Positions 394 to 31,181 of a stretch of 64,000 bases of DNA are shown here, piece by piece; within the stretch, counting starts at the first letter, position 1, and the number at the start of each line of letters is the position of its first letter. The stretch is from Botryllus schlosseri (lineage: Eukaryota): positions 29,948,001 to 30,012,000 of the forward strand of contig CM119372.1 of the NCBI GenBank assembly GCA_051294905.1, given 5' to 3'. Under the pieces are notes generated by a model. That model was not told the DNA's origin and ran no database searches. It worked only from the letters and a program-made list of their open reading frames with translations. The position numbers were made by a program, and so were the translations under genes.

Positions 394-602
394 ATCTTAT
401 TAGTTGAAAAGAACAATACTGAATCAAAACCTCGAGATTCCATATTTTCTTCAAATTACATCAGTTCAATAGTGACTAGCCAAACAATAACGGCAAATGT
501 ACCTGTTAAATGTATAGTTACACAATGGGATAGATTTTTCATCTTATCATAATATAATCTTGATTGTTTACGCACAAAGGGTCTTTTGGTAGATGTTTCA
601 TT

Positions 603-857
603 TGTTATGTTCTTGATCTTGTTTGAACAATAACTCAATGCGACGAGGTTGCAATACAGAATCAGTATATTATCAACAGAATAACTTTAAGGCAGCGACA
701 CGATCCAGAGTGCAGTTAAATGAAAAGACGTAGAGAACAGAACACAAAGGGTATAAATACAAGCACGACACACGAGGAAATAATGATTGGAGGTAATTAC
801 TAGTCCTATAGAAATTAGGAGTGAAACAACACTGAACGTAAATGCACGAACATAACA
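603..857 (-). repeat. 3' LTR of the Gypsy element
   Basis: Direct repeat of 5192..5446 with no mismatch noticed; TG...CA ends with 10-bp terminal inverted repeats; polypurine tract (ACAGGGGAGGAC on minus) adjacent at 858..869. Confidence 0.97.
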
Positions 858-890
858 GTCCTCCCCTGTAAGTTAGAGGGTTGCCCACAT

Positions 891-3800: not shown

Positions 3801-5141
3801 CTGCACGCTTACAGTGCAAATACCTTTCACTTTCAGTGGCTTGTCGCCGTACGCTACGAAAGAGCAAGGGTATGCTGAGAGTTTCGGAGAGCCCAAAGTT
3901 TTGTACCCAGTCAATCCCACCATGGCGGAGGGTGCACCAGTGTCCCACTGTGTCGGCAACGGAATGCCGTTGATGCTGGAGTTGATCCAGAGCTGGTTTC
4001 CTACACGTCGATATAGTTGATCGATGTCGAAGGAGAGGAGTGGCACTGAGCAGAAATTGACGGATGTGACCTGTTGCGTGATACTAGGTTTGGACATGCA
4101 CACAGGTTTGATATGACCTTTACGGCCACATTTCTGACATACTGCATGTCGATATTGACAGTCTTTTCTCTGGTGATCGATGAAACAACGGCTGCAGGAT
4201 TTCAGTCTTTCCGGGAAGTTGCCTTGGTTGGATTTGGAAGGTTTGGGAGGTTTTTTCCCCTTCTGATAACTTCCCGTCATCTTGTTGACGATAGAGGTGT
4301 CTTTACCGCTACTCTCGCCCTGGATAACCCTATCAGTTTCCAGCGTTCTCACGTATGTTGCGGCTACTTTGAGAACGTAGTCGAGGGATGGATTGGTTTG
4401 CGTTAGACAATGCCGTCTCACATCCGCGTGCGGCGTTTCTTTAATGATGAGATCACGCATTAGCTCATCAACGTAGCTCTGATCACAGCCATCTCTTGAG
4501 CATGTGAAGTTGCAATCCTTGGAGATTCCGCGTAGAGTTGCAATCCAATCAGCGTATGACTGTCCCGGCTGCATTTTGCAATTGTAAAATTCGTACCTGG
4601 CAGCTTGCACATGAATGGAGTCTTTGAAGTGTGTAGACAACTTCTCAGTCAACGCGTCGAAAGTTTGCGCACTGACATCAGCAGCACCAAACAAATTACG
4701 TAGGAGCGAGTACGTTTCCGGTCCAACCCATGAGAGTAGACACGCTCTCTTCTTCTCCATGTTGGAAATGCCGTAAATTGCAAGGTGATGGTTGAATCGT
4801 TGCAGATATTGGTCCCACTTCTCCTTTGATTTGATGAACGAATCAAACTTGGGAGCGGTAGCTTCAGATGTTGACGTACCGGGACTCAGCCTCTGCGCTA
4901 ACTGCGATATGGCTTCCTCATGTTGCAGCTTTTGCTGTGCCATATCTTCTTTGTGCTGTGCACGTTGTTGGTTCAAATCTTCTCTGTGCCGGGCATTTTG
5001 CTGCTCCAGCTGTGCCTGTTGTTGCTTGAGCTCTTCTTTACGCTGTGCTTTTTGATTTGCCATGGTTTCTTCATGCTGCTTTTGTTGCTTCGCCGTCATT
5101 TCCTGCTGCTTCTCTAGAAGCTTCAATATACTTGCTTCCAT
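891..5141 (-). CDS. Gag-Pol polyprotein (gag with zinc knuckles, aspartic protease, RT, RNase H, integrase)
   Basis: 1416 aa; CxxC knuckles (CSRC..H..C, CQKCGRKGHIKPVC), WDTGA protease motif, FIDD RT motif, STDAS RNase H, HHCC plus D-D-E integrase, in the Gypsy order PR-RT-RH-IN. Confidence 0.97.
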   Translation of the reverse strand: MEASILKLLEKQQEMTAKQQKQHEETMANQKAQRKEELKQQQAQLEQQNARHREDLNQQRAQHKEDMAQQKLQHEEAISQLAQRLSPGTSTSEATAPKFDSFIKSKEKWDQYLQRFNHHLAIYGISNMEKKRACLLSWVGPETYSLLRNLFGAADVSAQTFDALTEKLSTHFKDSIHVQAARYEFYNCKMQPGQSYADWIATLRGISKDCNFTCSRDGCDQSYVDELMRDLIIKETPHADVRRHCLTQTNPSLDYVLKVAATYVRTLETDRVIQGESSGKDTSIVNKMTGSYQKGKKPPKPSKSNQGNFPERLKSCSRCFIDHQRKDCQYRHAVCQKCGRKGHIKPVCMSKPSITQQVTSVNFCSVPLLSFDIDQLYRRVGNQLWINSSINGIPLPTQWDTGAPSAMVGLTGYKTLGSPKLSAYPCSFVAYGDKPLKVKGICTVSVQVGSEVRVGLKLVVLDEHRGQNIFGLDWSDAFSMTAKGTSALDAISSQMVKSQCNTIDISDSNDKLVSFQSKFPSVLSNVLGRCTKTKVTIHLKPNAKPVFNKPRSLPFARQIAVQTELNRLVNQGILEPINYSDWAAPIVAVTKSNGSVRICGDFKALNQQIQIDQHPLPSLDEILLKLQGGCIFTKIDLADAYFQLELDDDAKNLCVINTQFGLFRYRRMCFGVASSPANFQRCIDAMIAGLPGVASFIDDIIVTGIDERDHFRNLSLLFERLTEYGFTVNFAKCEFFKSSIEYLGHIIDKNGKRPSNKSVEAIKQLPKPQDVRQLQAFLGKVNYYRAFIPNFTNKAASLYRLVQKDAKFIWNTDCDAAFRILKNDVIDATQLAHYDVNKQLILSTDASQFGIGAVLSIEHNGEERPIAHASKTLSDSQKSYSQIEKEALSIIYGVTKFRQFLYGRKFTLVTDHKPLLAIFSPDKKIPVITAQRLQRWALTLMAYQYDIRYKPTNQHGNADGLSRLPKGPDPEFDELEIRENAEIVHAINMAFDCLPLTRNEIRDATLKDKTMKLVKLSVTHGNWNPKVHIDDFSWFSTRKHSLSLHEDIVMLNIDGFQRVVIPQSLRSRVLSLLHEGHWGIAKMKQMARRYIAWPSINRDIENLLKSCDACRKVMKAPDRQYREWPKTSESFERIHLDLAGPINNKMFLVIVDAHSKYPFVKVMNVGSTTTLCVVNALREVFSIEGLPITIVTDGGPQFTSNEFDTFCSNLAISHIVSPSFHPASNGEAERFVQSLKAGIIKNCDGGKDLSFALQTVLATYRCAPHPGIDWKTPAEILHGRQPRNLLSLCSPFDKSKSVTPGQSVTHFEIGSTVYARSYRSGPKWVAGVVTEILGRVVYIIKTDHGYWRRHKNQLQPRLISTGHDKATQEVAQPQQSQAEQPLVRNRAQDPAASPARTSGRRYPLRNRKPTDFYRAT

Positions 5142-5176
5142 GATTTATATTCGTCGCAGAAATAACTATGAATCCG

Positions 5177-5189
5177 ACTTCTGACACCA
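5177..5189 (-). promoter_or_regulatory. Primer-binding site TGGTGTCAGAAGT (tRNA-Leu type)
   Basis: Starts 2 nt inside the 5' LTR and begins with TGG. The tRNA assignment is from recall of this common PBS. Confidence 0.8.
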
Positions 5190-5191
5190 AT

Positions 5192-5446
5192 TGTTATGTT
5201 CTTGATCTTGTTTGAACAATAACTCAATGCGACGAGGTTGCAATACAGAATCAGTATATTATCAACAGAATAACTTTAAGGCAGCGACACGATCCAGAGT
5301 GCAGTTAAATGAAAAGACGTAGAGAACAGAACACAAAGGGTATAAATACAAGCACGACACACGAGGAAATAATGATTGGAGGTAATTACTAGTCCTATAG
5401 AAATTAGGAGTGAAACAACACTGAACGTAAATGCACGAACATAACA
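5192..5446 (-). repeat. 5' LTR of the Gypsy element
   Basis: Direct repeat of 603..857. Confidence 0.97.
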
Positions 5447-6446
5447 TCATTATTATTTCTTTTCAATTTTAAAACTTCCAATCTCGGTAATTTCTTTAGT
5501 AGATAATTACTAAGAAATTGGACGTGATTATAACTAAGGTCAATAGTGTGTAAATACTCGAATGATATATTGGAGGACAGAGAAAAAGACTGCAAGTTAT
5601 TGTGGTACAATGTTAATCTCTCTATATTACATAACGATTTGAGCACTGTCATATCGAACACAACCAGTCTATTTTCATCCAGGTTTAATGTTTCCAATTT
5701 CTTCAGTCCTTGGAAAGCCCCATTTTCTATAACTTCTATTGTGTTTCTTGATAAATCCAGTATTCTTAGACGGCGCAAATGAGCGAAGGTTCCATTCTTC
5801 AATCTTTTTATCTCATTATTGTCCAAATATAGCTTTTGTAAGTTCTTCAGACTTGCAAATATTGATCCTTCTACCTCTTCCAATAAGTTGCTGCTGAGAT
5901 ATAGACACTCCAGTCGGTGTAGATTTGAAAAGCTTTCCTTTTCAATTCGTGTTATGTAATTTCGTATCAAGTTTAGCTCCCTCAGCTTTTCATTTTTGCA
6001 GAAGGCACCTCCTTGTAGCGTTTGGATTTTATTCCAACCACAATGCAAAACCTCTATGTCTTTATATTTTTCTAATTGTTCTTTAGTTATTTCCCGTATG
6101 CAGCTGTCGTTAATGAATAATTTTACTGTATTCCGACAAGATTTTGCCAGGTATATCTGATCAGGATCTGGAATTCTTGTGTAACTCGAATGATCACACC
6201 AAAGTACCAAGTTGCTTCCTTGCATGCATTCCGGGTATAACGAGGTTCGTCTGTCATTGATTGTACACTTCTTTTGTTCTATTGTTTCCGGATAAATAGC
6301 ATTACACATGCCCAGCCATAATACTAATAGTTCCACTCGGTTCATTTTGCTCATGAATGGAACAACCCACAATGCTATGTTATACCTTCAGAAAAGGTTT
6401 CTTTGTAAATCAAAGTCTTATTTATTTTTGTTGACAATTCTCATAA

Positions 6447-8022
6447 TTATTCTGGTATTACAGAGTCAATGTCGACACTTTCCCCTTCATAGGAATGAGG
6501 ATGTATTTCTATACGCCTTATCCTTTTTGTTCGCCGATGGATTGAACTTGAGTAGCCTTTTATTCCCAAATTATTTTGACAAGTCCATTTTTCCGCATGT
6601 GGCGGATCTTTACAATATTCTCTCTCCTGATACACATCCTTTGGTATATTAGTGTTTGTAAGTTTCATTACAAGTCCTCTAATCAATTCATACAACATGA
6701 CTCTTCTTCCCAAAGAGATGTATTCCTTTACTCTTATTTCAAATATCTCTTCTACCACATGATTGAATATATCAAAAATTTCTTGGGTTATTTCTTCATC
6801 TAGGGCTGCTTCTTCTAGGCCAGTGGTTCCCAACCTGTGGTACGCGTACCACTAGTGGTACGCGAAGGTCTTCCAAGTGGTACGCGAGTAGATTCTGTTT
6901 TTTTCGACCAAAGGAAGTTATTAGTTCTGGTGGGATGGACTTTAGGTTTTTCGAAGCCGTCCTCGTCGTGGGTAGGGACAATCCCACCAATGAAGGCCTG
7001 CGGCAGGAGTGGCCAACCTGCGGCCGTAGAAGGGAATTTGTGTTGGCGGCCGTCAACATGCAATTTGAATTTACGAATTGACTCCCGATTTCTTGATAGA
7101 TTTTATTAACCTTGACATTTTCTTCGCGCTGGGTGCGATTCAATGCATCTTCATTTTTCAATTTTAAGCGGCGCCCTTTGCAATTAGAGCCCCACATTTC
7201 AGATTCGAAGAGTAGAGGGAAATGATGCACCCTATATGTAAATACCAACTCGGAATCGTGTACACCTCACTATACCGACAATCCTGATGCGAGGTCAAGA
7301 AATAACAGCATGCAACAAAGTGACTAATAACAATTGGCCCACCCGAAGATGCATCATCATTTATAACTTGCCCTAAATTTTCGAAATCACCCCCTTCATC
7401 AACCCTGCCGGGGAATATGACCACATCCATGGAGTGAGACAGGATAAATGTTTGATAGTACTATGTAAAACTACTAAAATTAATCACGGAATTCAATAGT
7501 GAATCTTTAAAAAAATTCGCGCTTCGCGCGGCAATGCCTGCACTCCATGACATCACCAGTGACCACTCGCGATTTGGGTGCGTATACTCTCAATATATAT
7601 AGCAAGCCTATATGATTAAATAGATTAGTCCGGAGTTCACCAGTTCACCTATACTTAATTACGACTATACCCGGGAATGCGGCCGTGGGCTACATGAATA
7701 GTTGAAATGCGGCCGTGAATGACAAAAAGGTTGGCCACCGGAAACATTTTTGACCGCCTTCGGCGCGTGTAACTTATGTAGGTGGTACGCGAGCACTACA
7801 TAAAACCTCGAAATGGTACGCGGGTGGAAAAAGGTTGGGAACCACTGGTTTAACCCAATCAACTCGGTCCGTAAGTAATTCCCATACTCTTTCTTTTAAC
7901 TGGAATCTATCATCCTCGCTGTCGTATTCTTTCAGATCTAATAGATCCAATTCATCATATACATCGTACTAAAGAAACCAATTCGATGGATTGTGACCTT
8001 CAATATAATCAAAATCTAACAT
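6447..8022 (-). pseudogene. Orphan ORF interrupted by MITE 6821..7847 (segments ~7848..8022 and 6447..6820), with one in-frame TAG in the 5' part
   Basis: The 5' part reads MLDFDYIEGHNPSNWFL*YDVYDELDLLDLKEYDSEDDRFQLKERVWELLTDRVDWVK and joins the 128-aa ORF (R-LEEAALDEE...) in frame if the MITE is removed. Confidence 0.5.
6821..7847. mobile_element. Composite hAT-type MITE (TIR CAGTGGTTCCCAAC) containing a second MITE at ~7004..7739
   Basis: Terminal inverted repeats; GGTACGCG subterminal motifs shared with 39620..39687; the internal part recurs near 38260..39230 and 54956..55420. No matching 8-bp TSD. Confidence 0.75.
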
Positions 8023-9473
8023 TCTCTTTTCCTCCCTGCATCGACATATTCACTTTTTTTCATTTTGAACTTATAAAGTATACTCATATTCATTAAAACA
8101 TTTATCAATTCATAAATCACCCAACACTCATTGGGCAATAAATCTCTCCCCCCCCCCACAAGGGATTTAATTCTTTTGTAATTTTATCTTCTGGTTTTCA
8201 TTTATATAATTTTTTTCCTATGAAGATTTTATTAGTATATGGCTTTTCTCTTTTGGTTTTGGCGATCATTTTTATCAATTTTTATAATTTATAAACATAT
8301 TCCGATATTTTATTATTTTGAAGATTTTTTTAGTGGGGAAAGTTATACAACATATCAATTGAAACATTATTAAAAAGGTAATATTACTCATCATCCCTGT
8401 CTTCCCTTCCATAAAGAATATTTAGACACGTGTTTCTCTGAATGACAAAACTACTCAATTCCAGGGTCATTTATACAGAGTTGTCCGTAACAAGTATTAC
8501 ACAACTACGTCTCATAGAGACCATCAGAGGAAGGGTGCCATGAGACAGGAATGTGAGTAATTTGCAAAATATTACTTTACAAAACTATTACATAATCAAG
8601 TATTGGATAAAAGACTAGAGGTTAAGTTAATTTTTACCCATGTTATGTACAGTGCACTGAAGAATTTACATGATTAGAAAAAATTGTAATAACAGCAATA
8701 AATCAAATAGCAGCAAATTGGTGTGAGGCTCATACATAGAGATCTTGGCAGAGCGAAAATTGTGGGCAAAACGGAAACAATTACGCTTACGTCAACATTT
8801 AGAAAGTATAATTCGATTAGCAAAACATTTAAAAATGAACACGAGGTGATTTGTGATAGGGTAGGTGGTCTGGGGCTGTTACAGACTAAAATCCAACACG
8901 AAAATTGCAGCCGAAGATACGAGCATAAAATCCAACATTACAAAGAAATAAATACCGTACAACTCTTCATAATCAACAATAACAAGTTCTTCTCGAATTT
9001 AAAAAACAAATGTCTTTGCAATAAAGAGTGGTCAGTCTTGCATTCAAGTACTCAAATTCACATTGTCCCCAGGTTGTTATTCTAGGGGAGGTGATAGTGG
9101 GAACAATCCCAGCGATTGATCAATGTATCGGAATCTTTTACTAAAAATAGAAACTGTATTATCGTCTGAGTATATATATAGATAGTAAAATACAGGTGTA
9201 TAGTCTCCACTTTTGCTAATCTCTAGCTTCGCCATACCCGGCTTCTATACTTTTTCCGTTTAGTTTGACCTTTGGTAATGGTGCCGAATTTGTAAATTTG
9301 TCCTAAACCATTACCAGTCACTCCTAGTAATTTAGTTATCGCAGCTTATCTTAAAGGCTATCCCTAAAAGTCTGATTCTACATATTATACAATCTTCATA
9401 TTATATCTACACCCTATTTTGAAGGACAATCCTTAGGTCAAATTATTAGTCGTCAAGTATTGGCTCTTTAGAG

Positions 9474-10337
9474 TCAGCTCATATTAACACCCGAAACAGC
9501 ATGGGTTCCATCAACACTGGGTTTTCGTAAAGCTATCATTCGGGTTGGAGCCTCTAGTCTCTTCGGAAGCCTACTATCTCGACTGGTTGAAGGCTCAATA
9601 TCGAACACCAATGTAGTTTCAAGATTGGTATTTTTGACTATTTGTTCGTTCCCCCCCTTATTTTTCAAGGAATTTTCAAGAGCTGATTCCGACAATTGGT
9701 CAATCGGTAGAATAAAAACGCCCCCCACATAACCAAACGTGCTTGTGGACCCGTATGTAAACCTCCATTGTTCGGGATTTCCTCCAAATAGGAACTCAAA
9801 TTCTGCGTCCATCCGACATCTCGTAAAACAAAATGTTTGCATGTTTTTTGCCCCCCGATATTGTTGCAACAGGAGAGCTATGGCGGTTATTATCGCTTCT
9901 GGATATAACACATAAAGTACTATATGTCCTTTATCTTTTTCGGTGTTTTTATCTAGTCCTTTGTGCATACTACAAGCTTCTAATAAATAGGTATGGCATA
10001 CTTTCATAACTTCCAAAACCTGCCAGGTGTTCTTGAAATATGGTTTTACGTGCCTCATAAGGTAACATTGTTTGCATTCCATGTTCCCAACCGGGTGAAA
10101 AGGCTTTCCTAATTTTGTCCAGTCCTCTTTGGTGTACATAGATTGTTGCCAATACTGCACCCTCGGATTGTCCTTTTCACAAGTGCCAAACAAAAGGCTC
10201 ATCAATCGGTCCCGAACCGGCGCAGTTTTAATGGTTTCCATTACCAACTGCTGCCTATGCGTCAGAGTGAACTGCATTGCCCACTCGTGGACAAACTTGT
10301 GATCCGTATTAGGATTGCACAATAGCCCGTAACACAT
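9474..10337 (-). CDS. Intronless 287-aa protein resembling the PWWP3A/MUM1 C-terminal domain
   Basis: Motif VKPYFKNTWQVLEVMK...DKGHIVLYVLYPEAIITAIA...AEFEFLFG recalls PWWP3A VETYLEDEGQLDLVVK...DRIRFILDVLLPEAIICAIS...AEEKYIKG (from memory, not searched). No PWWP domain. Confidence 0.6.
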   Translation of the reverse strand: MCYGLLCNPNTDHKFVHEWAMQFTLTHRQQLVMETIKTAPVRDRLMSLLFGTCEKDNPRVQYWQQSMYTKEDWTKLGKPFHPVGNMECKQCYLMRHVKPYFKNTWQVLEVMKVCHTYLLEACSMHKGLDKNTEKDKGHIVLYVLYPEAIITAIALLLQQYRGAKNMQTFCFTRCRMDAEFEFLFGGNPEQWRFTYGSTSTFGYVGGVFILPIDQLSESALENSLKNKGGNEQIVKNTNLETTLVFDIEPSTSRDSRLPKRLEAPTRMIALRKPSVDGTHAVSGVNMS

Positions 10338-10519
10338 TTCTTTCTTTAATTAGTTCAATATTTATAATTCTTAAATACAAAATGTTTCTTCTTTATTCAA
10401 ACAACACTTAGGATATTGGTTCATGTTGTACATTAATACGAAACGGATAAAATCTATTGGCTCAACTATATTCACATATTTTCGCTGAATATCTTAGTTG
10501 AACAATGTGCGAGAATTCA

Positions 10520-11038
10520 TTAATCATCAGAATGATGTGATGTTGTAGGTCTAAGTGGAGCGATAGGTGGTTGCTGACGAAACATGATACTGCCAAAAGA
10601 CGCATACGTCCCGTCTGACGTAACATTGCTATTATGCGGCAAGTTGCGGCTTGTTGAAGATGGCGTCAGTAAGGACGTCACAAGAGGACTACTTGTCGAT
10701 GTTGAGGAGCCAGCTTCTATTTCTTCACTTCTATTCTGTTCGTTTGAGGCAGATTTTCTTAGCAAATATGGTTTTACTTTTGCTAACTTTAGATTTTTTA
10801 ATTGTTTTCTACGATAGTCATTTCGCCATGGCCATTCTTTGACCTTTTCATTACTTGCTCCCATTCCTTCGAAGAAGGCTTCTGCATAATGTCTAGTTCC
10901 ATTCTTAATGTCATCGAAAAAATCATTCCATCGTTGTAATCTCTCTGTCTTTTCCACCCCTCGAAGTACTTCATACCATAGTTCGATATTTTCAATAGAT
11001 AACTCCCATAATTGTTCTTTAGTTATTGATGCAGACAT
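10520..11038 (-). CDS. Orphan 172-aa protein with a Ser/Thr-rich tail; possible diverged paralog of 9474..10337
   Basis: ATG-started ORF in the co-oriented array; EVLRGVEKTERLQRW and VKPYL echo LLFGTCEKDNPRVQYW and VKPYF. Confidence 0.55.
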   Translation of the reverse strand: MSASITKEQLWELSIENIELWYEVLRGVEKTERLQRWNDFFDDIKNGTRHYAEAFFEGMGASNEKVKEWPWRNDYRRKQLKNLKLAKVKPYLLRKSASNEQNRSEEIEAGSSTSTSSPLVTSLLTPSSTSRNLPHNSNVTSDGTYASFGSIMFRQQPPIAPLRPTTSHHSDD

Positions 11039-11496
11039 TCTTTCATTTATGACACCTTGTTATTTTTACACCTTAAAATAATAGTGTTTCTTTCAGCCGA
11101 GATTATTGAAAGATATCGTTAATAATATTCCTTTTTCGGTAAAGTTGATTTGGTTTCAAACTTTGAATTTTGCTAATTGTTTATTAAGCCTGTTTGGAGT
11201 TAATTATTCTTTGACCAAGTAGAGAAAGTGTCATTTCTGGTTTTATCAATCCCAACAGTTCTTAATTGCCATAACTAATCTTCTCTTTTATATCACATAC
11301 CAGACTAATTGTTCTCTCTCTCCTAAAATCCACTGAATAACCTATCATTATTCCATGGGTATACAAATCTTTTTCAAACGAAAACCCAGTCGTCCACAAT
11401 ATGCAATTATTTCATTATCAGTCACAGAAAATATAACATATCTGGTAACAGTTGCAACGTTGTTAATGTACAATTATATCGCAAAGCTTTCAAATA

Positions 11497-12000
11497 CTAT
11501 TCGTCCTCCCAGGGACGCCAAAATTTTTCGTAGCGCATGAGTGTTTCCTCGTCTAGAGGTCTTAACAGTTCATGATCCGAGGATAGATCAGATTCACTAC
11601 TATTAATTCCAGAATCAGTATCTGATAGGGTATTCAGACTTTCATCCGAGTCTGTTAAATCACCGGACTCGGAATCCAGATAAGGTCTTAACAATTCATG
11701 ATCTGAGTAAAGATAGGATTCTATACAATCATTTCCAGAGTCGGTATCTGATAAGATACTCAAACTTTCATCCGAGTCTGTCAGATCTGATTCCGAATCT
11801 GTACTGTCTCCCCAAATCGAAGGGTTCCTTTCAAAATAGCTTTTCAAGGTGGTTTCGTCAATTTCTTGTTCGCTTTCTTCACTTTCATCATTCTCACTAT
11901 CGGATGGTGCTTGACACGATTCGAGAATTGCATCTATATTTTTAAGAACCACAACCCAATTTCCGGACCATATCTGCTTATCGAGAATAGAGGGTTCCAT
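11497..12000 (-). CDS. Acidic Asp/Ser-rich 167-aa orphan protein with a 42-aa internal duplication
   Basis: ATG-started ORF; DLTDSDESL..LSDTDSG...SDHELLRP occurs twice (126-nt period, frame preserved); TATATA ~65 nt upstream. Confidence 0.6.
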   Translation of the reverse strand: MEPSILDKQIWSGNWVVVLKNIDAILESCQAPSDSENDESEESEQEIDETTLKSYFERNPSIWGDSTDSESDLTDSDESLSILSDTDSGNDCIESYLYSDHELLRPYLDSESGDLTDSDESLNTLSDTDSGINSSESDLSSDHELLRPLDEETLMRYEKFWRPWEDE

Positions 12001-13859
12001 TGCTTCAGCACTTGTTATGCCTACAGTTATACCAGCAAAGAGATGTATTGTGGTTTCTTTGCCCTATATATACCAGGCCTGTGGAAATGCATGAAGCCTA
12101 TGTGTCATTAATTTTCCAAGTAACCAACAGGAAGCTCCTGTCTCTTTGGGCGAGTTCGCAAAACAGTACGTGGCAATTTTGTTATTGGCCTTATACTACG
12201 TATGTACTCTATCTACAACAACTTCACCTCTCAGCGTAGGAGTTGTTATTTACACGCCTCATTGCGCAAATCAAGTCGTTAAATTTTATTGCACCACAAT
12301 TTGATCGGGAATTTGTTATGCCTCAATCAACTTTGTGCCTGGACATTTCTTATTGAACGAAACTCCACTGCGGGTCAAATATTAAACCATAGTGCTTCGT
12401 ATGTCAAATGATCAGATTTTAGCACATTCTTAGTACCGTCATTGCTATATAAATACTGTATCATTGAAGTCGTAATGTCTTACTACAGAATCTGCCCAGC
12501 CGACCCGGACTTGTGTGAATCATTGGCCGGATGTTATCTAGTGCATGATTTGTAGTAAAGCTCTAGTGCATACTAAAGACCCGTTTCCTTTACCGTCTCC
12601 TTCACCGTCCCCTCAAAACATCGAGTCACCAATTTTTACTGTAGATAAGTCCTCATATCAAATGAGCGAGGACTGCCAAAATACGAGATAGAACCTCAGT
12701 TTATGACGCGCGTCGCCATTTTGTAAGGCTAACGATGGAAAATTCGACAACTCTGAATCCGCGCAATGAACCGCGAATAGACTCGGATGGGCTTATTTGT
12801 TCAGTTGTTCACGTTAAAAATCAAAGGATCAGGCCGAATTTTTTAGACTCATAACCTCTTTGTGCTGCACACAAGTTGTGGAAGTAATGATTAGATGCGC
12901 ACTTTCGCGTTTGTTACAATAATTAAGCTAACAAATACTGTCCGCTGAACACCGCCATATACCTTCGGTAGTTTCGTGGATAATTGAAAGCACCTCAAGT
13001 TACTATCAAATTCGACTTGCTGATCAGGGCATACATGGACCAGGGACAGACATTAACCAGCACGTTTGTCTCCCATTTGTACTCGTAATGCTGCCTACTA
13101 CAAATTGTCGATGACCCATTTCGTATACAAATGATTTGCGCTACATTATGCGTATTATACGCATGTGGGTCGGTTACCGTCCATATAGAAAATTTTCGAA
13201 ATAGTTACACTCTCTGAGTGTACTTATTGTTGATGTTCATATATCTATTTCACTGTAACTCTAGCCCTAGTTCGACAACTTGTGCCCGTCGCCACCGCCA
13301 AATACGGGCAATCAGGTATGACCAGAGCACCCCGTAATTGTGACTACTGTATATTTGCGTTCTGCTCGTGATTCCGTTATCAGTCAAACCTTGCCAGCCG
13401 ATTGAACAGTCGTTACTATGTATTGTACACAACGTATTTGGTAGATTTTAGCAAATAAACAATCGCTATTGGATTTACCGATTCAATCTCGTCGTTAAAA
13501 CGTAATTAATAATGTGCATACCGAATAACACCATCTTCTATCATGACTTTATGATCAAATATAAGTTGAGTTTTTTACCTTCTATAAATTTTGGTGCACA
13601 TTATATAACGATGAGATCCGTCAGTCATGTTTGAAATACTACTCAATCATGTTTGTGATAACCATCCCAGCGCCAAGCTAACCAGCCAAAATAGACATTT
13701 TCAGCTATTAATCATCACAACATAAGCTACCCAATAATGGAAGCCCACTGTGTTGGCGGTATGATCATTTATCGACAAACCATGTTCATTCATTTATGCA
13801 CACCAATTTGTTCATACCAATAAACCGCGTCAATACACATAGAACTCATTGTACTTCTG

Positions 13860-20500: not shown

Positions 20501-21806
20501 ATGATGTTCGTTGCATAAGCAACAGTAATACCGTGAATTTGCCGCGTACAATATTCAATAATTAACATAACAACATAACACATAACAACCCTCATTTCTA
20601 CTTTACAATAATTCGGCATTTATTTTACAATATTTATCTTAGTTTGTCATGCAATGTCACTGCAGTAATATACGTCTTTCGGTTATTCCGCCGAATAACC
20701 TCCCTAAGATAATTTTTTGAAGTGACTCTCCGGCATTTCGCATAACCTAAATACATACATCCTACCATTGCCGTTACGCTAACCGCAAAAATCAAGGCAT
20801 AATTGTTAGTTGATTCTTCTAAACCCTTCTTATTATTAATATCAATAATAGTTCTTCCTACTGTATAAGCTTGTTCCATTTCCAGCAGTTTGTGTAATTC
20901 TCCGTAGAAATCAAATGTAATTCGGTCCGGTCTGTCATCTTTGGTAGTAGATAAGGTAAGCGGTATATCGAGTGTAGTTATTCCTTCTTCGACTGCGGGC
21001 GTAATTGATGAACGTGCACTATTGGAAGTCCTCTTCCAACTTTTGATCACATCATTTTTACTTACTGATGTTGGTTCGTTCTGGCCGTACCTTGATGAAA
21101 GCAATGATGTTGATTTAGTTCTTACCTTTAGGTCTTGTTCCCGAGTTTGGTCATATGCTTTGGTGGTAGAGTGAGCCTTGTTGGTGACGAAATTTCGGTG
21201 CATTCCAACTATCGTTGCTATTCGTGTTGTATCAAATAACATGTTGAGGTACGGTGTCGTCTCCACGAATTCCTTAGCGTAACGATTTGATTGCATTGAG
21301 GACTCAGATGTCCGCATAATCTGCGACGTTTCTATAGGCATTGAAATAGAGTTTGACATTTCACCGCTTTTTGTGGGTATTTGATAAGTCGTGGTATCCC
21401 ATTGTAACGGTGTATTTGCAGTTTTCTCTATGGGTGTAGGTATTGTTAACTCATTTTCAGAAAAGGTGGTTCCTGTCGTTGTGACACCAATACTTTTCTG
21501 AGCGTCCATCTCTGTTAATACAGCCAAATCTTCCGTCGTCGGATCCCCAGTCGTAAAAAACTCTGTGGAACTCACTCTGCGTCTTTCTCGTACACTCGCA
21601 GTTTTCACTGTAGTTAAGAATGTAGTTATAGATACAGTCGGTCTTGAGCTAGCGTTATCCTCGCGTGAGGAATGCGTTGTCGTCGATATGGCAGGAAGTG
21701 GTGTCGATGAAGCCGTTCCGGAAGTAATAATAGCCGATGTCAACCTTCTGGTGTATGGCGTGATTCCAGTAGTTGTTAATTAAATAGTATATTCATATTG
21801 AAATGA

Positions 21807-21840
21807 ACCCGAATATTTTCGGCTGACACTCGTCAGGGGT
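21807..21840 (-). ncRNA. Minimal hammerhead ribozyme (mirror copy)
   Basis: Exact reverse complement of 23582..23615. Confidence 0.78.
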
Positions 21841-21941
21841 AATCGTCAGCAACTAGTAGAGAATTGGAAAGAACATTGTATATCAACAATCGTATCACAA
21901 AATATGACGTCACCAGCATGAAATTTCGAATGAGAGAGCGT

Positions 21942-22677
21942 TCAATGTACTATTTTTAGGTGATACACGAACTCCTTTTGTTGACAGAGTTTTGGTTGGT
22001 GTATTTTGATAAAAGTTGATTCCAAGGCACACAAATGGAATTGTGAACGGCCTCGACCTACGATTCGAAATCGGTCGTCTCGATAATTATTCGCACAAAT
22101 CGGATTATCCAACAAATGTTTGCCGATGGCAGAATTAATTGCCTTTGATCGATCAGCATCAATCTTAAGTGGATGAGTTAAGGGTGAGCTTTTCACATCG
22201 CGTGACGCACGTGTTCTGATAAATCTGGGGACATGTTGGTTTATGCGGTCCTGCAGACGTCTTGACGTTCTTCCCACGTAGCCACAATCACAGTGGCACC
22301 TATATTCGTACACTACATTACTTTGTTGAAGTGCAGGAAGCACGTCTTTGCGTGTTGAAGGGAGCAGTTGTGTTGTTGTAAAAATCACATTGGTTTTGAC
22401 TGTATCGTAACATTTACCGACAGCAGAAATCAATTGTTTTTCAAAGCGGGTGGAAATGGGGCCAATCCAAGGTAGATGGATATAAACATCTTTTATTGTT
22501 CGTGCGGTGGGCTCTGTTCGTTTTTCTGCGTTGAATTGCGTTAATTTCCTCTCCATGCCGCGGCTGATGACGTGTTCAGGGTAACCATTATCAAGTAAGA
22601 TTTTTCGGATGTAGTCAAGTTCTAAACTCAGTTTGTTACCCGAACATATCATCAACGCTCTATGCACGAGTGTGCCT
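21942..22677 (-). pseudogene. Penelope ORF 3' fragment (RT thumb/linker and GIY-YIG), inverted copy
   Basis: NVVYEYRCHCDCGYVGRTSRRLQDRINQH motif; translation identical to the plus-strand copy. Confidence 0.9.
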
Positions 22678-22699
22678 GGAAGGCCGGAAGGCCTGGATT

Positions 22700-23480
22700 C
22701 CGCTGGAATTCATTTAGTCCTCGGCGCAGAAAAATTAACCTCATAGGCACACTCGTGCATAGAGCGTTGATGATATGTTCGGGTAACAAACTGAGTTTAG
22801 AACTTGACTACATCCGAAAAATCTTACTTGATAATGGTTACCCTGAACACGTCATCAGCCGCGGCATGGAGAGGAAATTAACGCAATTCAACGCAGAAAA
22901 ACGAACAGAGCCCACCGCACGAACAATAAAAGATGTTTATATCCATCTACCTTGGATTGGCCCCATTTCCACCCGCTTTGAAAAACAATTGATTTCTGCT
23001 GTCGGTAAATGTTACGATACAGTCAAAACCAATGTGATTTTTACAACAACACAACTGCTCCCTTCAACACGCAAAGACGTGCTTCCTGCACTTCAACAAA
23101 GTAATGTAGTGTACGAATATAGGTGCCACTGTGATTGTGGCTACGTGGGAAGAACGTCAAGACGTCTGCAGGACCGCATAAACCAACATGTCCCCAGATT
23201 TATCAGAACACGTGCGTCACGCGATGTGAAAAGCTCACCCTTAACTCATCCACTTAAGATTGATGCTGATCGATCAAAGGCAATTAATTCTGCCATCGGC
23301 AAACATTTGTTGGATAATCCGATTTGTGCGAATAATTATCGAGACGACCGATTTCGAATCGTAGGTCGAGGCCGTTCACAATTCCATTTGTGTGCCTTGG
23401 AATCAACTTTTATCAAAATACACCAACCAAAACTCTGTCAACAAAAGGAGTTCGTGTATCACCTAAAAATAGTACATTGA
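22700..23480 (+). pseudogene. Penelope ORF 3' fragment (RT thumb/linker and GIY-YIG)
   Basis: VVY...YVG GIY-YIG motif with Cys insert, SAIGKHL, ALESTFI; the RT core is missing (5'-truncated). Confidence 0.9.
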
Positions 23481-23581
23481 ACGCTCTCTCATTCGAAATT
23501 TCATGCTGGTGACGTCATATTTTGTGATACGATTGTTGATATACAATGTTCTTTCCAATTCTCTACTAGTTGCTGACGATT

Positions 23582-23615
23582 ACCCCTGACGAGTGTCAGC
23601 CGAAAATATTCGGGT
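23582..23615 (+). ncRNA. Minimal type I hammerhead ribozyme in the Penelope pLTR
   Basis: ACCC-CTGACGA-GTGTCAGCC-GAAA-ATAT-TC-GGGT: conserved CUGANGA and GAAA cores, UH site (C23611), stem I ACCC/GGGT, palindromic ATAT in place of stem III. Confidence 0.8.
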
Positions 23616-23776
23616 TCATTTCAATATGAATATACTATTTAATTGTATATTGAAGTTCTGTACCTCCAAGAAGCTCTTCAAGTAGTTGTTAATGTAGACG
23701 CAATACTCTCCGATGTATATGCAGACGTTCGTGGCGTAGGAGTTGTTGTATCAGTTGTTAACTTGATTGTGTATCG

Positions 23777-25271
23777 CAGCGGTTCTCAACCGGGGGTCCG
23801 CGGACCCCTAGGGGTCCGCGAAGCAATTTCAGGGGGTCCGCGAGACCTCTAAATTTTTAAAATGGCTGATCACGCATAATCTTCGTTTTATTTTTTAATT
23901 TGAGAAAGCAGTAGGCAGTTTCGCACCACAACTGCTAAAACCTCATGACTCATATCATCATCATAATCGTCTGACATGAACTATCGTAGTGCGGAAATTC
24001 ATTTTTATTGCCAATTTTCCAATAACCTGCTGATACATACGTATTGCTGTTTAGAGACGTTCTGTTGGGGTTTGTGAAAAAAAATAAAAATATGGAGATA
24101 GTAACGTCCATCAGGGTGACTTCTTAGTGTCTGCGAAACCTTCTCGATTTGAAGTTGTCAGTCTCATCAAATTAGTGAACAGTGGTTTGAAATAAAAATT
24201 TCCGAAGTATTTCCCTAATTGGTCCCAATGTAGGGATTGAAACCTCGCCACGAAATCCATTTTATCCTGTGATATACCTAACCACTATTTGAACAGCTTC
24301 TTGGAGGTACAGGACTTCAATATAGAATTGTATAGTATAGTCATATTGAAATGAATCCGATTATTTTCAGCTGACACTCGTCATTAATCGGACAATGATA
24401 TACTTGTTCTTAAAGCTCGGCTATCAGATTTGGCGCATTCTTCTTGCGGATGCCCTATCTTCAAGGCAAATTTTTCGATGCGCAAGGAGTGTTTCGTTGC
24501 TATCAAAGCATTACGCCCCAACCCTGAAATTCATATCACCAGTTATATTGGTACGCAGCCTTGTCTTGTTAATGTTCAATTGTTCATGGTCGAAAATGTT
24601 TGCTCGTAAATATATAAGTAAACCCGAACAGAACAAGTCGTTTCATGACAGTCCTTCTCAGGTTGGAAAACTTGGATCCATTCTTTGGCGCATAAAATTT
24701 GTAGATTAGATTAGATTAGGATTTCACTTTGACGGTAGAAACTCTCTGCAAATCGATCAAAATGCCATCGCGGACCGAATCCGGCCTGTGGTCCGAATGT
24801 TGCCCGTCCCTGCGCTAGATGCTGGACGTGATATGTTCATAAAATATATGTTTCTTCATTTTGTTGCCATAAATGTTGCGATCCCACCAAAAGTATCGTC
24901 GGAAGCGTCATGCGTTAATATTGCATTAGCCTCCATCTACCTTTGCGGAAATGGTTTTTGGCACTCCTCGTTTCATATCAAAACAAAGACGCGGATTTTC
25001 AAGACACGACCACGTACTTCAAGAAACACAGCAGCAAAATTAGATTTGAAATAATAAAAGTCTACCAATTTCTACATAAATAGTATGATGTTATTTTCAA
25101 GAAAAATCAATATTTTGCTGTTTATCACAAGCCTATAAAGTTCATAATTGCACAAAACAAATGAAGGTCGCACCATAATAGAGCTAAAATTGAACTAAAT
25201 CTTGAGGGGGTCCGCGAGGGTCCGTGACGGTCAAAAGGGGTCCGCGAAGCCAAAAAGGTTGAGAACCACTG
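23777..25271. mobile_element. Non-autonomous hAT-type element (TIR CAGYGGTTCTCAACC)
   Basis: TIRs, GGGGTCCGCG subterminal repeats, perfect 8-bp TSD GTGTATCG (23769..23776, 25272..25279); related copy at 43264..45434. Confidence 0.92.
24290..24383 (-). repeat. Diverged solo Penelope pLTR/tail fragment nested in the MITE
   Basis: Reverse-complement match to 23587..23680 with several mismatches; absent from the related MITE at 43264. Confidence 0.75.
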
Positions 25272-27532
25272 GTGTATCGACTCCCTGTAGTCAAGGTTGG
25301 AGTTTCAGTCGTTGATAACGCAATTGTAGTTCCAATAATATTTGTGGAAGTCGTAGTATCAGCAACGGGTACAGGCTTTCTTCTTAGAGAACTGTCATAC
25401 TCGCCGTCTGCGTCATAATAGTCATAGTAGTAATTTCCAGGTTCTCGATAATTAGTATAGTTGTCATATCCATCATAGCTAAATCCCTCGTAATCTTCAA
25501 TACTATCATAATTATAACGTTTAACATCGTATTGATCCGTCCTTCTTACACCTCCCTCAGTGTTTGTGATGGTTTCCACCGTTCTCATTGTTGGTTCTTG
25601 ACTCATTCCGATAGGAGTGAAATTATACAATGTACCAGACTCGCTATTGGGAGCCGCCCTTCGAGTGGTCCCTTCATGACTGACGGGCCTTGTTGTTATT
25701 ACTTTTGCAGTACTTAATGGCCTTGCGGAGTTTGTTTTTATTTTGGTATTTTCCTTATAGGCATAAGGTGTATATAGCAATATTCCCGCACATATTATAG
25801 CTTTGTAGGCAACACTAGGTCGGAATAGCCGTATATCACGAAGCTGTGCCCCTCTCAATTTGCGCGTTGACATGTAGCTCAATAACCCATTATTTATCCT
25901 ACTCAGTTTCCGTTGCGTCAATGCTGACCCCAGTTCCTGACTTAAAGATTCCATTTCAGCGATTGTTGTAGATCTTTCCAGTCTCTCTAGATTTTTTCGC
26001 TTTTTATATATGGGAAGAGACAACTGGCGTAAACGCCTTTTCGTTACTTCTACATAAAACATTCCTAGGCGGGCTAGATAATATTCAATATTTCTTGTGT
26101 TTTGTCCATTGTTTTCAAATGATGCAGTCAGAACGAAGTTGCCTAATCTCCCGGGTTGTTTACAATAGGGTAGATTCTTGGGCCATGCTTTAAGCGAAGA
26201 TTCTTGACCTGAAGGTCTCGGGGATGCAATTTGTAATCGACCATTGTTATGATCTGCATACACGGGTTGATTTGTGTATGGATCATATAACACGTCCTTG
26301 AAGACCAAGGCCGTTTTCAGATTTCCTATTGTATTTCGACAGACTTTTCTATTCTTTTTGCGTTCACATTCCAGGCTACCTTGTAACAATGTCGGAAAAT
26401 TATTCGTCCCCATTATCCGTAGAGTTTCGTTATTTAGATGTTCACGAAGGGCATAAACCCTTAACCTGAACCATGTGTGACCGTCAAAGTTCGCTGGTCT
26501 TTCTCTGGGGCCTGTCTCATTGCGAGCTTTCAGCCATACTATATCGTGTTGTAGCCTGGGTAACTTGACTCCCGCTGGCCATTGGCTGTAAGAATAGGTA
26601 TCTTGCATTCTTGTCCCAAGTCCTCTTATGCTATTATCTATCTCCCTGATTACAAAGTCTCTGGACAGTGTATTTACTGTAAGATTGTCTGCATAAAATA
26701 CGCATCCTGAACATTGCATTCGGCCAGTTTCTTCGTGAACACATACACTAAATTCGCCTTTGTTGATTTTCCACCCCACGATTCCTTCCGAACGCTGTTG
26801 ACACTTCGCTGTCACTGTTGCATATTGTGACAATAGATTCATTACTGATAACTTGTAAACTGTCAACAGCTGGTGTATAGTAACTTGTGGGGTCGTATTA
26901 GGAGAGATTATCCTATGAATAGCTCTCGGCACGGCCATAGGAACACGTGCTTCTCGTCCTACAACATACTTCCATGTATGTATTGATCCAAAGTCACTTT
27001 TCCGACGATATGTTGTGGTTCTGGTCAGGGCTAATAACGTAATATCGGGAGATATTCGTGATAGTTTCCGATTGCATCCACATTCTCTTTCGTATTGCCT
27101 AACATTGCTCCAAAACCGCCTCTCAGACCCTGAGGGTGCAAATAACTTATACAATTGACCATGACCCGCTCGTGTTGGACCGAATTCGGGCGTTTCTTCA
27201 TATATTGATAAATTATTTTCCGTTTCACCTATTGGCCAACTCTCATTTAATCTAAATAGTCGATTAAGGCGGATATATTTGAGACCTTGATATCGGAACG
27301 TTGTCCATCCTGTGAGGTTAAATTTGATCCTGGGCACCGCACTCATAGCGGATAGGGGCAATAATTCGCCATGAGCTTGCAGATATCTTCGGTGCAGTAT
27401 TAAGGCCACTGCCAGCACACTCCATACTTTCAGGTAACAGTTCATAGTATTATAATTAGTTAGTATATCTGTAGACTATATGATACAGTTAGATTTTATA
27501 AAAGCAAATGTTTTTGAGTACATATGTATGCA

Positions 27533-29979
27533 CTACATCCTTGTCGATTTGGCTGTTTTCAAGTAGGTAGGAGTCGATGATATGTACATTGTCAATTGGG
27601 AGTTAGTGTTCCGCCTTTGTACCTTAGATTTTAACTTGGGACAGCAGAGACTGCTATAACGAAAGCAGCAAAACAAGATGATCCCAGCCCCCAATATCAA
27701 AATCAATGGAATTAACACGGACCCCAGGCCGGAGAAAATACCACTCAATCCTTTACTGAATATTCCACCGGCCGCGCCAAGTCCATCTTGTAGTAAATCA
27801 CCCGCGCTATTTCTACCGATTTTATCAAACTGCCGGCACCGTGCGTCATTTCTTCTATAGTTTGGCCCAAGTTCTTCATAAATTCTTCACCTCCAACAAA
27901 TTCGAAGGGCTTCACTGTAATGTTCTCATATCGCCAGTGAGAAATATTCATGTACACACTCTTATTCAGATCTTCTCTCCAAACTTGTAATCCCAGATCC
28001 ACCCTCTGTTGGGCTTGATCTAGACTGATACGATTTGCACGTAGCTCCAAACCAATGTCATTCGTCTCATTGATAAAAGCGTCTCTATAGGCTGTTAATC
28101 GCTGAGCATGTTCTTTTATCCGCAATGTCCCTCGCCGAATTTTCGTGAGATATATCTTGCTGGAATCAAATATTAGTTTGCCAGTTAAGTTTGCCAATTC
28201 GTCTAAAACCAACCGATCGATGGCCAGTTCAGCTTCATTCAGTTCCTTATAGTTTTGAAAAGAGGTCAGAGAGGCTGTGGCTTGTCTTACTATCATCTGT
28301 CGGTTTCTCTCTATATACTTTTCCATTAGTACAAGACGTTTATTTACTAATGATGCCCTTACCTCCAAGGTGGCGACCGTCTGATCCAGTTTCTGTTGTT
28401 GAGCCCTTTGTAGTCGAGAAAGTTCGTTAATCTTTCTCCCTAGTGCAGTGGACCTCTGCGTGGCTTGTATCATTCTGTCATTAATCTGTCTGCTAAGATC
28501 CACTGTCTCTTCATGTAACTGGGATGAAACTGTCGCCACGACGGCTATTGCAGACACCAAGCCAAATACAAGGCATAGTAGTCCAGACAGGAACCTTTTA
28601 CGCCTTTGACGCGTGCCCCGATTGGCAATATCTCTCGATACCATGTCACCTTTAATTTCTATTGGGCCCCCTGGGAAACGTAGTCGGTTTCGTTCCGGAT
28701 CAAAGTGAATATGGTCCCAAAATGCTGCCTTCAATTCGGGTCCGCCTACCGGGTCACGGCACACCTCCTGGTTTCTTGAAATTCTATTTTTACATGCCAT
28801 GTTCGACTCAGTAAGAGAGGGAAATTTTAACCATATAGGCATGGTATCGGACTTTGATGGTACACCATCATAATGATTATCCCACCGTCCGAATCGTTCA
28901 AGTCTACGATACGAACCCCCCAAGTTCGGAAAAGACGGAAATATCCATTTAACTCTGTGAGGGAAATTTGTCATTGGTAGATCACCCCATAAAGTGACAT
29001 TTGTTCCTGGCCAGAAGTTACACGAGTGGGCTATTCTGGCATATTCATGCCACCAAGGGTCCTGGGGCCATCGGTTCTCGTAATACTCTTGGTTGACCCA
29101 TCCTCCGTGGACCCTGCATGGTATCAACGGCCGAACCTGTGACTCCCAGTCACTTACTTTAGTCATTACTACTTCTCGGATGATTATATCTGCCTTATTT
29201 GGTTCAAGGGCCGAGATTACTCCCTTAATGTCGCATCTCGTACAGATTCCTATCCTGACCCCCTTCTTTACTAGATGCCAGCATTGTGTAAAACTATTGC
29301 TACTGGCATTGTACTTGTTCAATTCTCCCATTTTTTCCATATCCCGATCTCTCATTCGCTCTTGGCGGCACAAGGCTTCAACAGCTGAATACCTTTCGAA
29401 GACTCGAAGCTTAATTAATTTAAATTTAGTCATGGCAAACATGGAGTAATTCCTTCCAAGTTCCTTGAACAAGTAAGTGTTTCCAGACCAAAACCAGCGG
29501 ATCCTATAAGGTCCTATCGGACGAATGAACGTATTTGTTTGATTAAGGACATCATAGGAAATATTAGGCGAAATTTGGCCCAGGCGCCGCTGACAGAGGC
29601 AGGTGCGTTCAAATTCTTGTACGCTTGTCCAATACCGCCCATGTGGGAACGCCATTTGTTGTAATGAAAATCGCTCAGCCACTACGTAACCAAATGACTT
29701 GCTATAAAACAACTCCGGTCGTCTATATACATGTCGCTCAGCCGTCTTATTGAAGATGCTCATCACGTGATAGTCCTCCCACTGTGTCTCATTCAAAGTC
29801 ACCCATTCCTCGGGTAGGGGTCCTCGTAGTTCACCTAGCGTCCCCTGAGTGAAAGACCGTGCTCTACTTGTTACAGAATCTGTGAGTCCGTGCATGCCTT
29901 TCGCCTCCGTATGCTGCAAGCAATCAAATGTACTATTGATACCAAAAGAGACAAGAATAAGATAAACGAAGCAGTCCAT
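27533..29979 (-). CDS. Class I viral fusion-protein-like envelope glycoprotein (~815 aa if a single 1-nt frameshift is corrected)
   Basis: Signal peptide MDCFVYLILVSFG, many N-x-S/T sites, RQRRKR furin site followed by hydrophobic FLSGLLCLVFGLVSAIAVVATV (from 28593), long heptad-like helix. The -1 frame carries DGLGAAGGIFSKGLSGIFSGLG, TM VLIPLILILGAGIILF and CC-containing tail (27533..27748). Confidence 0.85.
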
Positions 29980-30112
29980 TCTTGTGGAATTATTGGTTGT
30001 GGCCACCTCATAAGTTGGATATAATAGCGCACTAATCCTAGACTACCGTCTGTAAAAACACATGAAAAATATTTTGTCATATCCGGCCTATAACCTATAG
30101 CGGAGTTCACAG

Positions 30113-31181
30113 TTATAAACCTACAGGAGACCCGTCAAATTTGTCAAAATTATACTGTGGGTCATTGTGTATGGTGCGCAGGAGTGCCAGAAATCGGTCA
30201 ATTTTCTGATGTTGACGTTTCCACAAAAACTCCCCCACGTAATCGGCCAAAAGATGACGTGCTAAACCACGAGACCTATGTAAATGATACTTGAGCTGGC
30301 TCCAGCAACATTCCACGTCATTGGTATGGCGAGATGTCCGAGGGTCTTTAAACCAAGAAGAATGATCCACTACACCGTGTATATAACCCTTCCCCCAGCT
30401 CTCTATGCCCTTATAGGAAGGGTAGGCATCGGTCAAAATCGTGGACCCCTCTGCTACATTCTCTACTATGAGTTTTCGAAATACTTCAGCAGTCCTGTCG
30501 GCAGTTATCTCAATGAACATTTCTCCGGTAGCTTTATCTATGCCCCCGAACCCCCAAATGGCTTTAACAGCTGGTCCTTTACCCGAGGCAGCCCGGCGCT
30601 TAGCTAAGTGCGTCTCATCAATGATAACACAGCCTTCTTTACCTCCCAAACGTCGTTTATTCCTGCGAAATTCGGCAGTACAAATTTTTCGCAGTCGTCC
30701 ACACCAAGCGACAACTGAACGCTGGCTAATCTCGGCTTCATGTGCAATTTGGGTTTGCAACGCGTCATGGGCCCAAAAGTAGAATAGTATTAGCAATTTG
30801 GGAAGTTCTACCTTGCTTCTTGCGAATAGCGAGTATTTCCGTATAGTCGCCGTAGTATCGCACGGGTTGCATCGCCACCTAAATCCATCGTCACACGTCG
30901 ACGTACTCTCTTCCTTCATTATTTTTTTACATCGTTGGCATTTCATCCTTCGCACCAGCAGCCCGTGATCTCTCAGAAATAGCACACAATCTCGTGTGTT
31001 GAGTAGCGCACCCGATTCGATCAAACTCAACACATTGTATGTTCTTCCCCGCGTATCTGCGCAAGTAAGCAATACAGTATGTGTCGTCCATCAACTCTCT
31101 ACCGTCCTTTGCGGATCGGACCCCTTTTTCTCGACCTATTATATATCCTATTTCTCTCTTAGTTAGTCCCGTATTAATCAT
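30113..31181 (-). CDS. Merlin / IS1595 (ISXO2-like) DDE transposase, probably with a short 5' intron
   Basis: Zn ribbon CQRC...WRCNPC, HTH region, IIDET, WGFGGID, ILTDAYPSY, VDHS..F.DP...HTNDVECCW motifs. The long ORF lacks an ATG; ATG 31181 joins it in frame via GT (31135 or 31102) ... AG (31057). Confidence 0.9.

Follow-up and report, generated by a model that had tools for sequence, protein, structure and literature searches.

A broken gene and its two insertions

The stretch of DNA analysed here, called the window in the following, comprises 64,000 nt of the Botryllus schlosseri genome (assembly GCA_051294905.1, contig CM119372.1, positions 29,948,001 to 30,012,000 of the forward strand); all positions given are those of the window. 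The sequence is rich in repeats and eukaryotic, and its set of transposons, a C-type lectin-like exon and single-cell RNA runs with the same label all point to an animal as the most likely source. Its minus strand carries a gene, which we denote G, that has been broken into three pieces by two later transposon insertions. The 5' piece (25272..27445, 724 codons) encodes an N-terminal hydrophobic stretch, a surface domain homologous to that of the neighbouring gene F, a helical remnant, a Tyr/Asp-rich segment and the start of a stalk. A middle island of 32 codons (23681..23776, minus strand), 41% of which specify Thr, precedes the 3' piece (20634..21780, minus strand), which encodes a Ser/Thr-rich stalk, a single membrane helix, a basic tail and the stop; an AATAAA motif overlaps its last codons. 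Two long open reading frames (ORFs) cover most of this region, namely a 753-aa ORF (25184..27445, minus strand) whose final 29 codons extend into the first insertion and a 369-aa ORF (20634..21743, minus strand) with a TTG start, which measures 381 aa from stop to stop.

The initial annotation joined the 753-aa ORF, the island and the 369-aa ORF into one frame, and the paired target duplications, the stop-free pieces and the matching codon phase confirm this. Each duplicated motif occurs exactly twice in the window, the 8-nt motif at 23769 and 25272 and the 13-nt motif at 21768 and 23681, with per-site chances of about 1.4e-5 and 4.4e-8, respectively; one copy of each stands at the borders of the island. 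The codon phase of each motif is identical on either side of its insertion. When the natural pieces were analysed separately, each had a single minus-strand frame free of stops (stops per frame 0/48/55, 0/2/1 and 24/0/25), and the 270 nt upstream of the first ATG in the 3' piece remained open in only 11 of 2000 shuffles. As the three pieces were treated separately, the length of 1131 aa for the joined product rests on the phase and the open frames.

The insertion nearer the 5' end (23777..25271) is 1495 nt long, with 15-nt inverted ends that are 93% complementary and an 8-nt duplication (23769-23776, 25272-25279). We take it to be of the hAT type from these short ends and the 8-bp duplication. 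It contains no transposase ORF and is therefore non-autonomous, and a related copy lies at about 43264-45434. It had been described as a hAT miniature inverted-repeat transposable element (MITE); the hAT-type ends and the duplication fit, but at 1.5 kb, and with a Penelope-like fragment of 105 nt inside it (24279-24383), the element is a MITE in a loose sense only. The second insertion (21781..23680) consists of two inverted 900-nt arms that are 100% complementary, with a short extra tail on one arm and a 13-nt duplication (21768-21780, 23681-23693), which bears out its earlier identification as a Penelope insertion. Inverted arms, an optional tail and a target duplication make up the layout of Penelope elements in the excerpt of the source consulted (PMC3846280), and this insertion shares all of these features. 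Its arms encode a weakly matching GIY-YIG-like end of a retroelement ORF (PF01541, E 0.052, 14.3 bits against a cut-off of 22.6), for which no PDB match was found.

Independent support for the continuity of G comes from contigs that skip the hAT-type element. We compared four of 24 runs, the contig sets of three DNA runs (X1, X5 and X9) and one RNA run (X23), over a stretch that left out the 3' piece of G. A joint without the hAT-type element was found in all three DNA runs, in one contig apiece; the short side of the X5 joint measures just 21 letters, and X1 is possibly the window's own source. Loose contig ends at 23681 agreed at 0.4, which is uninformative. A search for uninterrupted copies had been suggested, and such copies are represented by these joints and by an unbroken relative (P0016, see below), but the empty site itself was seen at the hAT-type element only.

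Anatomy of the G product

The F-homologous surface domain of G spans about aa 31-400 and the helical remnant of a post-cleavage subunit extends to about aa 565. A signal peptide was part of the initial description; what lies behind it is an N-terminal stretch of modest hydrophobicity (mean of 1.17 over 19 residues). Neither the 724-aa 5' piece nor the F-aligned region holds an R-x-K/R-R furin-type site, and there is no fusion peptide in the 5' piece, where the best internal 19-residue window scores 1.37 (aa 540) versus 2.61 in F. With both the furin site and the fusion peptide missing, G is, to judge from its sequence, fusion-dead.

A long Ser/Thr/Pro-rich region lies ahead of the single membrane helix and is strongest across about 200 aa. 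These residues make up 59% of the island; in the 3' piece their share is 34-54% within aa 1-150 and falls to 28-32% in the 150 aa that follow. The Thr-rich mucin stalk of about 450 aa proposed previously thus has a strongly mucin-like core but fades further on. The stalk is predicted to be O-glycosylated, and it contains an R-E-R-R site at aa 64 of the 3' piece. The membrane segment and basic tail stand as first described: the helix (about 20739-20795; aa 329 of the 3' piece) has a score of 1.81, and 29% of the residues that follow are Lys or Arg. Just ahead of the stalk, aa 650-700 (about 25390-25540, minus strand) are 22% Tyr and 22% Asp/Glu; this segment presumably resembles clustered tyrosine-sulfation sites.

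The neighbouring F gene and its paralogy to G

What the initial annotation missed is that G is a paralogue of the adjacent gene F and lies two genes downstream of a Merlin transposase. F appears as a 744-aa ORF (27745..29979, minus strand) with a furin-like site (aa 457-462), a hydrophobic peptide that starts at aa 463 (19-residue window 2.61) and long helices. Its C-terminal part, a membrane helix and tail, lies in another frame (27533..27886, minus strand), the end of which is 87 nt away from the start codon of G. Barring an error of assembly, a shift of frame at about 27.8 kb has therefore broken F as well; a relative 63% identical to F (P0001) carries the membrane anchor in frame. A structural model built with 43 sequences (predicted local distance difference test score, pLDDT, of 74) places helices at aa 424-477, 485-558 and 588-631; a model from only three sequences was unusable (pLDDT 36). 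A cleavage site, a fusion peptide, long helices and a C-terminal anchor are thus all found, the anchor being out of frame in the window copy.

G and F share 23% identity over 364 columns (E 2e-11), and the alignment of G to the F family profile covers 443 columns with a probability of 99.95 and extends past the F cleavage point. Beyond that point a motif is kept between aa 522-565 of G and aa 588-628 of F (score 25.9; the highest of 40 column shuffles reached 17.2). By these sequence comparisons G is a paralogue of F, and the low identity favours a duplication that was old or followed by fast divergence. A tree built from 15 surface domains places the window F with three further F proteins (100/99), leaving G outside this group on a long branch; tree tests neither firmly supported nor rejected G monophyly.

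In structure comparisons, the best rows for the F model are post-fusion coronavirus spikes (Z 4.8-5.3), values that long helices alone can give. PDB profile searches returned weak helical HA2 matches only (E 0.04-1), with no haemagglutinin-esterase (HE) or haemagglutinin-esterase-fusion (HEF) protein among them. By ESM features, the neighbours of both proteins are for the most part envelope glycoproteins of viruses, a lead only given the low level of recognition. Since the wide VIA search with the F model was swamped by coiled coils and barely probed the surface domain, we do not claim a new fold for this domain.

Relatives of G and F

A HMMER search found 41 relatives among 1.84 billion representatives, and most of those that span the region carry the cleavage site and the peptide. 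Two of the 41 are of the G type, P0016 (94.7 bits with G versus 85.1 with F) and P0032 (155 bits versus no F match); P0027 is tied between G and F scores. P0016 is an unbroken protein of 722 aa that aligns over aa 31-563 of G (E 3e-24); it lacks a furin site and possesses a Ser/Thr-rich stretch, a hydrophobic C-terminal segment and a basic tail. P0016 and the F-type protein P0004 are each encoded on one Logan contig of 5305 nt, probably the same one, which suggests an F-G tandem pair in a distant relative, P0004 being only 31% identical to the window F. Across unrelated contigs, F- and G-type proteins can be recognised at 22-33% identity, with cleavage site and anchor intact.

One of the 43 aligned F-family members, P0024, matches Foamy_virus_ENV (E 1.2e-5), a possible link to retroviral env genes. 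Three others have long N-terminal extensions, with a weak epidermal growth factor-like match in P0006 and an upstream hydrophobic segment reminiscent of a leader protein in P0009 and P0035. A word-index protein search yielded one relative for F, none for G (7998 candidates scored) and none for alignment A5 (8000 scored); given that HMMER found 41, the empty result for A5 is a failure of sensitivity. No locus emerged from one JGI scan or from IMG/VR scans with F, the F alignment, the transposase and a PWP3-like ORF.

A multicopy cassette with a Merlin-type transposase

Upstream of F lies an open frame for a Merlin/IS1595-type DDE transposase (30113..30946, minus strand; PF12762, E 1e-9, 39 bits against a cut-off of 27). 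The order on one strand is thus transposase, F and G, the intervals being 133 nt and 87 nt. The contig sets X1, X5 and X9 stem from three studies and carry two organism labels between them, and in each set all 18 bins over 25561-31302 are covered by several contigs, whose pieces are 83-99% alike. As every bin is covered by several diverged contigs per set, the cassette is multicopy, and it is present under both labels.

The window copy is a young dead copy in which F and G are both broken. Zero stops in 3411 nt bound its neutral divergence at about 1.7% (95%). G had been thought functional until recently; the copy is indeed young, but there is no sign of host use, given that the cassette is multicopy, that F is also broken and that the RNA run has zero depth over G and F. 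In that run, of which about 6% was read, two transposase bins have a depth of 0.3-0.4. An index search named no RNA run as a carrier, which is no evidence either way. A high-copy repeat upstream of the transposase (about 31365-31693) reaches a depth near 2000 in the same run. Over about 31300-32250, contig joints that skip parts of this repeat, together with indels up to 32177, suggest that the element extends rightward. No gag, protease or reverse transcriptase (RT) was found in 111 short frames, covering all 92 of at least 38 aa in 11.9-20.6 kb and 19 of 63 in 31-36.5 kb.

A candidate attachment or shield partner of F

We consider it probable that G is an attachment or shield partner of F, that is, the second envelope-type glycoprotein encoded by an endogenous virus-like element with multiple copies, whose end module would consist of the transposase, F and G. 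An old duplication of F would have given rise to G, which would have retained the surface domain together with some of the helical subunit behind the cleavage point and lost the furin site and the fusion peptide, its C-terminal helices being replaced by an O-glycosylated Ser/Thr-rich stalk with a membrane anchor of its own. On a particle or an infected cell, the stalk might raise the G surface domain so that it binds a host receptor, and the glycans of G might shield F or balance sticking against release. F would perform fusion, with G as its non-fusing partner. The initial annotation spoke of an attachment, shielding or decoy glycoprotein; this fits the anatomy and the unbroken relative P0016, while the binding or shielding itself is something we infer.

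A broader proposal, which we put forward tentatively and with distinctly less confidence, would place the cassette in a so far undescribed lineage of virus-like animal elements that are enveloped and integrate by means of a transposase. These would have obtained their attachment and fusion pair by duplicating a class I fusion gene and disarming one copy, and the surface domain would have an unrecognised fold, possibly that of a distant, esterase-dead relative of HEF or HE.

A number of observations weigh against the attachment or shield partnership. Neither G nor F belongs to a Pfam family, and a Foldseek search with the good F model gave no match at E<=0.001 in PDB or BFVD; F is therefore a putative class I-type fusion protein, assigned on its motifs and modelled helices. 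The surface-domain tree leaves the origin of G unsettled: support for joining its two full G rows is 61/37, their branches are long, and an approximately unbiased test stops short of rejecting a recent descent of G from the F lineage of the window (p-AU 0.053). The stalk of P0016 is shorter and does not align with that of the window G, and the presumed location of P0016 and P0004 on one contig is drawn from contig records, not from DNA. No depth was seen over 25561-30345 (G and F) in the RNA run. Within the window, we found no pair of Merlin-type inverted ends starting with GG that had at least 13/20 identity and a duplication, the far end possibly lying outside; nor could any gag, RT or capsid gene there be assigned to the element. 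Glycosylation, attachment or shielding, particles and transposase-driven movement would all have to be supposed in addition to what the DNA displays.

Interference by truncated env proteins at the receptor is a known phenomenon, and G might accordingly be a decoy: it could block the receptor against superinfection, or be shed at the basic site of the stalk and absorb host defence lectins. G keeps the surface domain and cannot fuse, and the R-E-R-R site is where such shedding could occur. P0016, however, lacks a furin-like site followed by the corresponding segment, which indicates that shedding is not conserved, and no expression was seen in the RNA run; we find this unlikely. It seems more unlikely still that the cassette is mere cargo of a cut-and-paste Merlin transposon that captured envelope genes and never formed particles, F and G being passengers. 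In its favour, the window holds no capsid, gag or polymerase of the element, and the transposase frame is open in a copy in which F and G are broken. Nevertheless, selection is needed to explain why the F and G types stay recognisable at such low identity with cleavage site and anchor intact.

A host origin, in which G would be a domesticated or native mucin-like membrane protein recently knocked out in this haplotype, would account for the type I membrane anatomy and the stop-free pieces. Against it stand the lack of introns, the paralogy to a fusion-type protein, the tight spacing to F and the transposase, the several diverged copies per run and the absence of RNA depth, which together make it very improbable. 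Almost no credence can be given to the notion that the three pieces never formed one gene and that their continuity is due to chance or an assembly artefact. The island is open in 290 of 2000 shuffles and is thus weak evidence by itself, the empty-site contigs concern the hAT-type element only, and none of the contigs listed spans the whole compared stretch. Two exact duplications in matching phase, the contigs free of the hAT-type element in all three DNA runs and the presence of the whole layout in one frame in P0016 nevertheless argue for a single gene.

Comparison with known systems

For several of the viruses and elements compared below, our knowledge comes from excerpts of the sources cited. 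The HE of nidoviruses derives from an HEF-like progenitor (PMC3266934), and infectious salmon anaemia virus (ISAV) has a pair of HE and F proteins (PMC7350309). As far as these excerpts go, HE/HEF and the ISAV pair resemble G in that a surface subunit of the class I fusion family serves as a separate, membrane-anchored, non-fusing partner. They also indicate that HE was gained by transfer, whereas the donor F and its derivative G stand side by side; G further differs by its long Ser/Thr stalk. The F model gives weak structural echoes of the HE of mouse hepatitis virus (Z 3.1, root-mean-square deviation (rmsd) 5.9, 174 aligned) and of torovirus HE (Z 2.9, rmsd 6.6, 176 aligned), and profile and sequence comparisons found no match of the family to HE or HEF. 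In SGNH esterases the catalytic Ser lies in a Gly-Asp-Ser motif. None of 21 rows has Asp-Ser after the conserved Phe-Gly of the family, and taking this Phe-Gly as the equivalent of the esterase site is a guess.

Mucin-like glycoproteins are found in various viruses, examples being gp150 of Epstein-Barr virus (EBV), the mucin-like domain of Ebola virus GP and pneumovirus G. Another is mgG of herpes simplex virus 2 (HSV-2), which balances sticking against release according to the excerpt consulted (PMC8150390). Such proteins are type I or similar membrane glycoproteins whose Ser/Thr-rich stalks adjust attachment, release or shielding next to a fusion machinery of its own; G shares this anatomy and would have a comparable role. 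No homology was found between them and G. To our knowledge, none of HSV-2 mgG, EBV gp150, Ebola virus GP and pneumovirus G duplicates the fusion protein of its own virus.

The features that F shares with the Env proteins of retroviruses and retroelements such as foamy virus include a signal, a surface subunit, a furin site, a fusion peptide, helices and an anchor. Atlas virus is an example of an env-bearing retroelement. In the case of foamy virus Env, P0024 alone matches among the 43 aligned members, and the profile reaches E 0.3 with foamy virus Env in PDB. Unlike retroviruses, the cassette has no pol or long terminal repeat (LTR) of its own in the window.

Merlin/IS1595-IS1016 elements have inverted repeats of 24-462 bp and duplications of 8-9 bp, and the excerpt describes the IS1595 family with a single transposase gene (PMC8101967); the word 'virus' is absent from that paper. 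The cassette shares the DDE_Tnp_IS1595 domain, above cut-off, but differs from these elements as described there in having two envelope-type genes after the transposase. Teratorn is a fusion of piggyBac with an alloherpesvirus (PMC10175614, excerpt). It likewise joins a DNA transposase to viral genes in a multicopy endogenous element; judged from the same excerpt, the cassette differs in its transposase superfamily, its class I-type glycoprotein and the absence of any herpesvirus gene seen. Judging by titles and the beginnings of abstracts, we found in the literature no Merlin/IS1595 transposase accompanied by genes of viral or envelope type (Repbase and most subscription papers lay outside the search) and no description of a mucin-stalked paralogue of a fusion protein.

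Significance

That a transposon breaks a gene is ordinary; what matters here is the identity of G. In viruses with separate attachment and fusion proteins, the two genes are usually unrelated, or one has been transferred. Here, the donor F adjoins a fusion-dead, mucin-stalked derivative. A distant relative seems to have such a pair too, and the step from one entry protein to two may therefore be open to direct study. The tie to a DNA transposase hints that an element of the cut-and-paste type might move from cell to cell. The family has neither a Pfam model nor a fold match, and annotation would overlook its G members in copies filled with nested insertions.

Other features of the window

A cluster of co-oriented intronless ORFs occupies 1..12063 of the minus strand and includes a leucine-rich-repeat (LRR) protein, a weak Bcl-2-like ORF, a PWP3-like ORF and orphans, several of them broken by young nested elements. 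The cluster, putatively linked to the cassette, is probably cargo of the same element. The LRR gene (5404-6354, minus strand) encodes an N-terminal hydrophobic stretch and is possibly immune-modulating cargo. Inserted in its 3' part is a full Ty3/gypsy-type LTR element (599-5446) whose 259-nt LTRs are 99.6% identical and whose open 1416-aa gag-pol (protease, RT, RNase H and integrase), at 891-5141, belongs to this nested element and not to the cassette. The Bcl-2-like ORF (6447-6851, minus strand; E 0.009, below cut-off) is interrupted on its upstream side by a hAT-type element at about 6821-7847. The ORF at 9474-10337 (minus strand) has a PWP3A/B C-terminal-like match (E 3e-5, below cut-off), and an ORF running off the left end (1-396, minus strand) is weakly similar to it (27% over 73 aa, E 5e-4). 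Between the cluster and G, 8.5 kb (12100-20600) without long ORFs or useful Pfam matches might be decayed cargo or a host patchwork; a repeat with a spacing of 137 nt is found at 20139-20381. On the host side, a C-type lectin-like exon is located at 61121-61423 (minus strand; E 0.0015).

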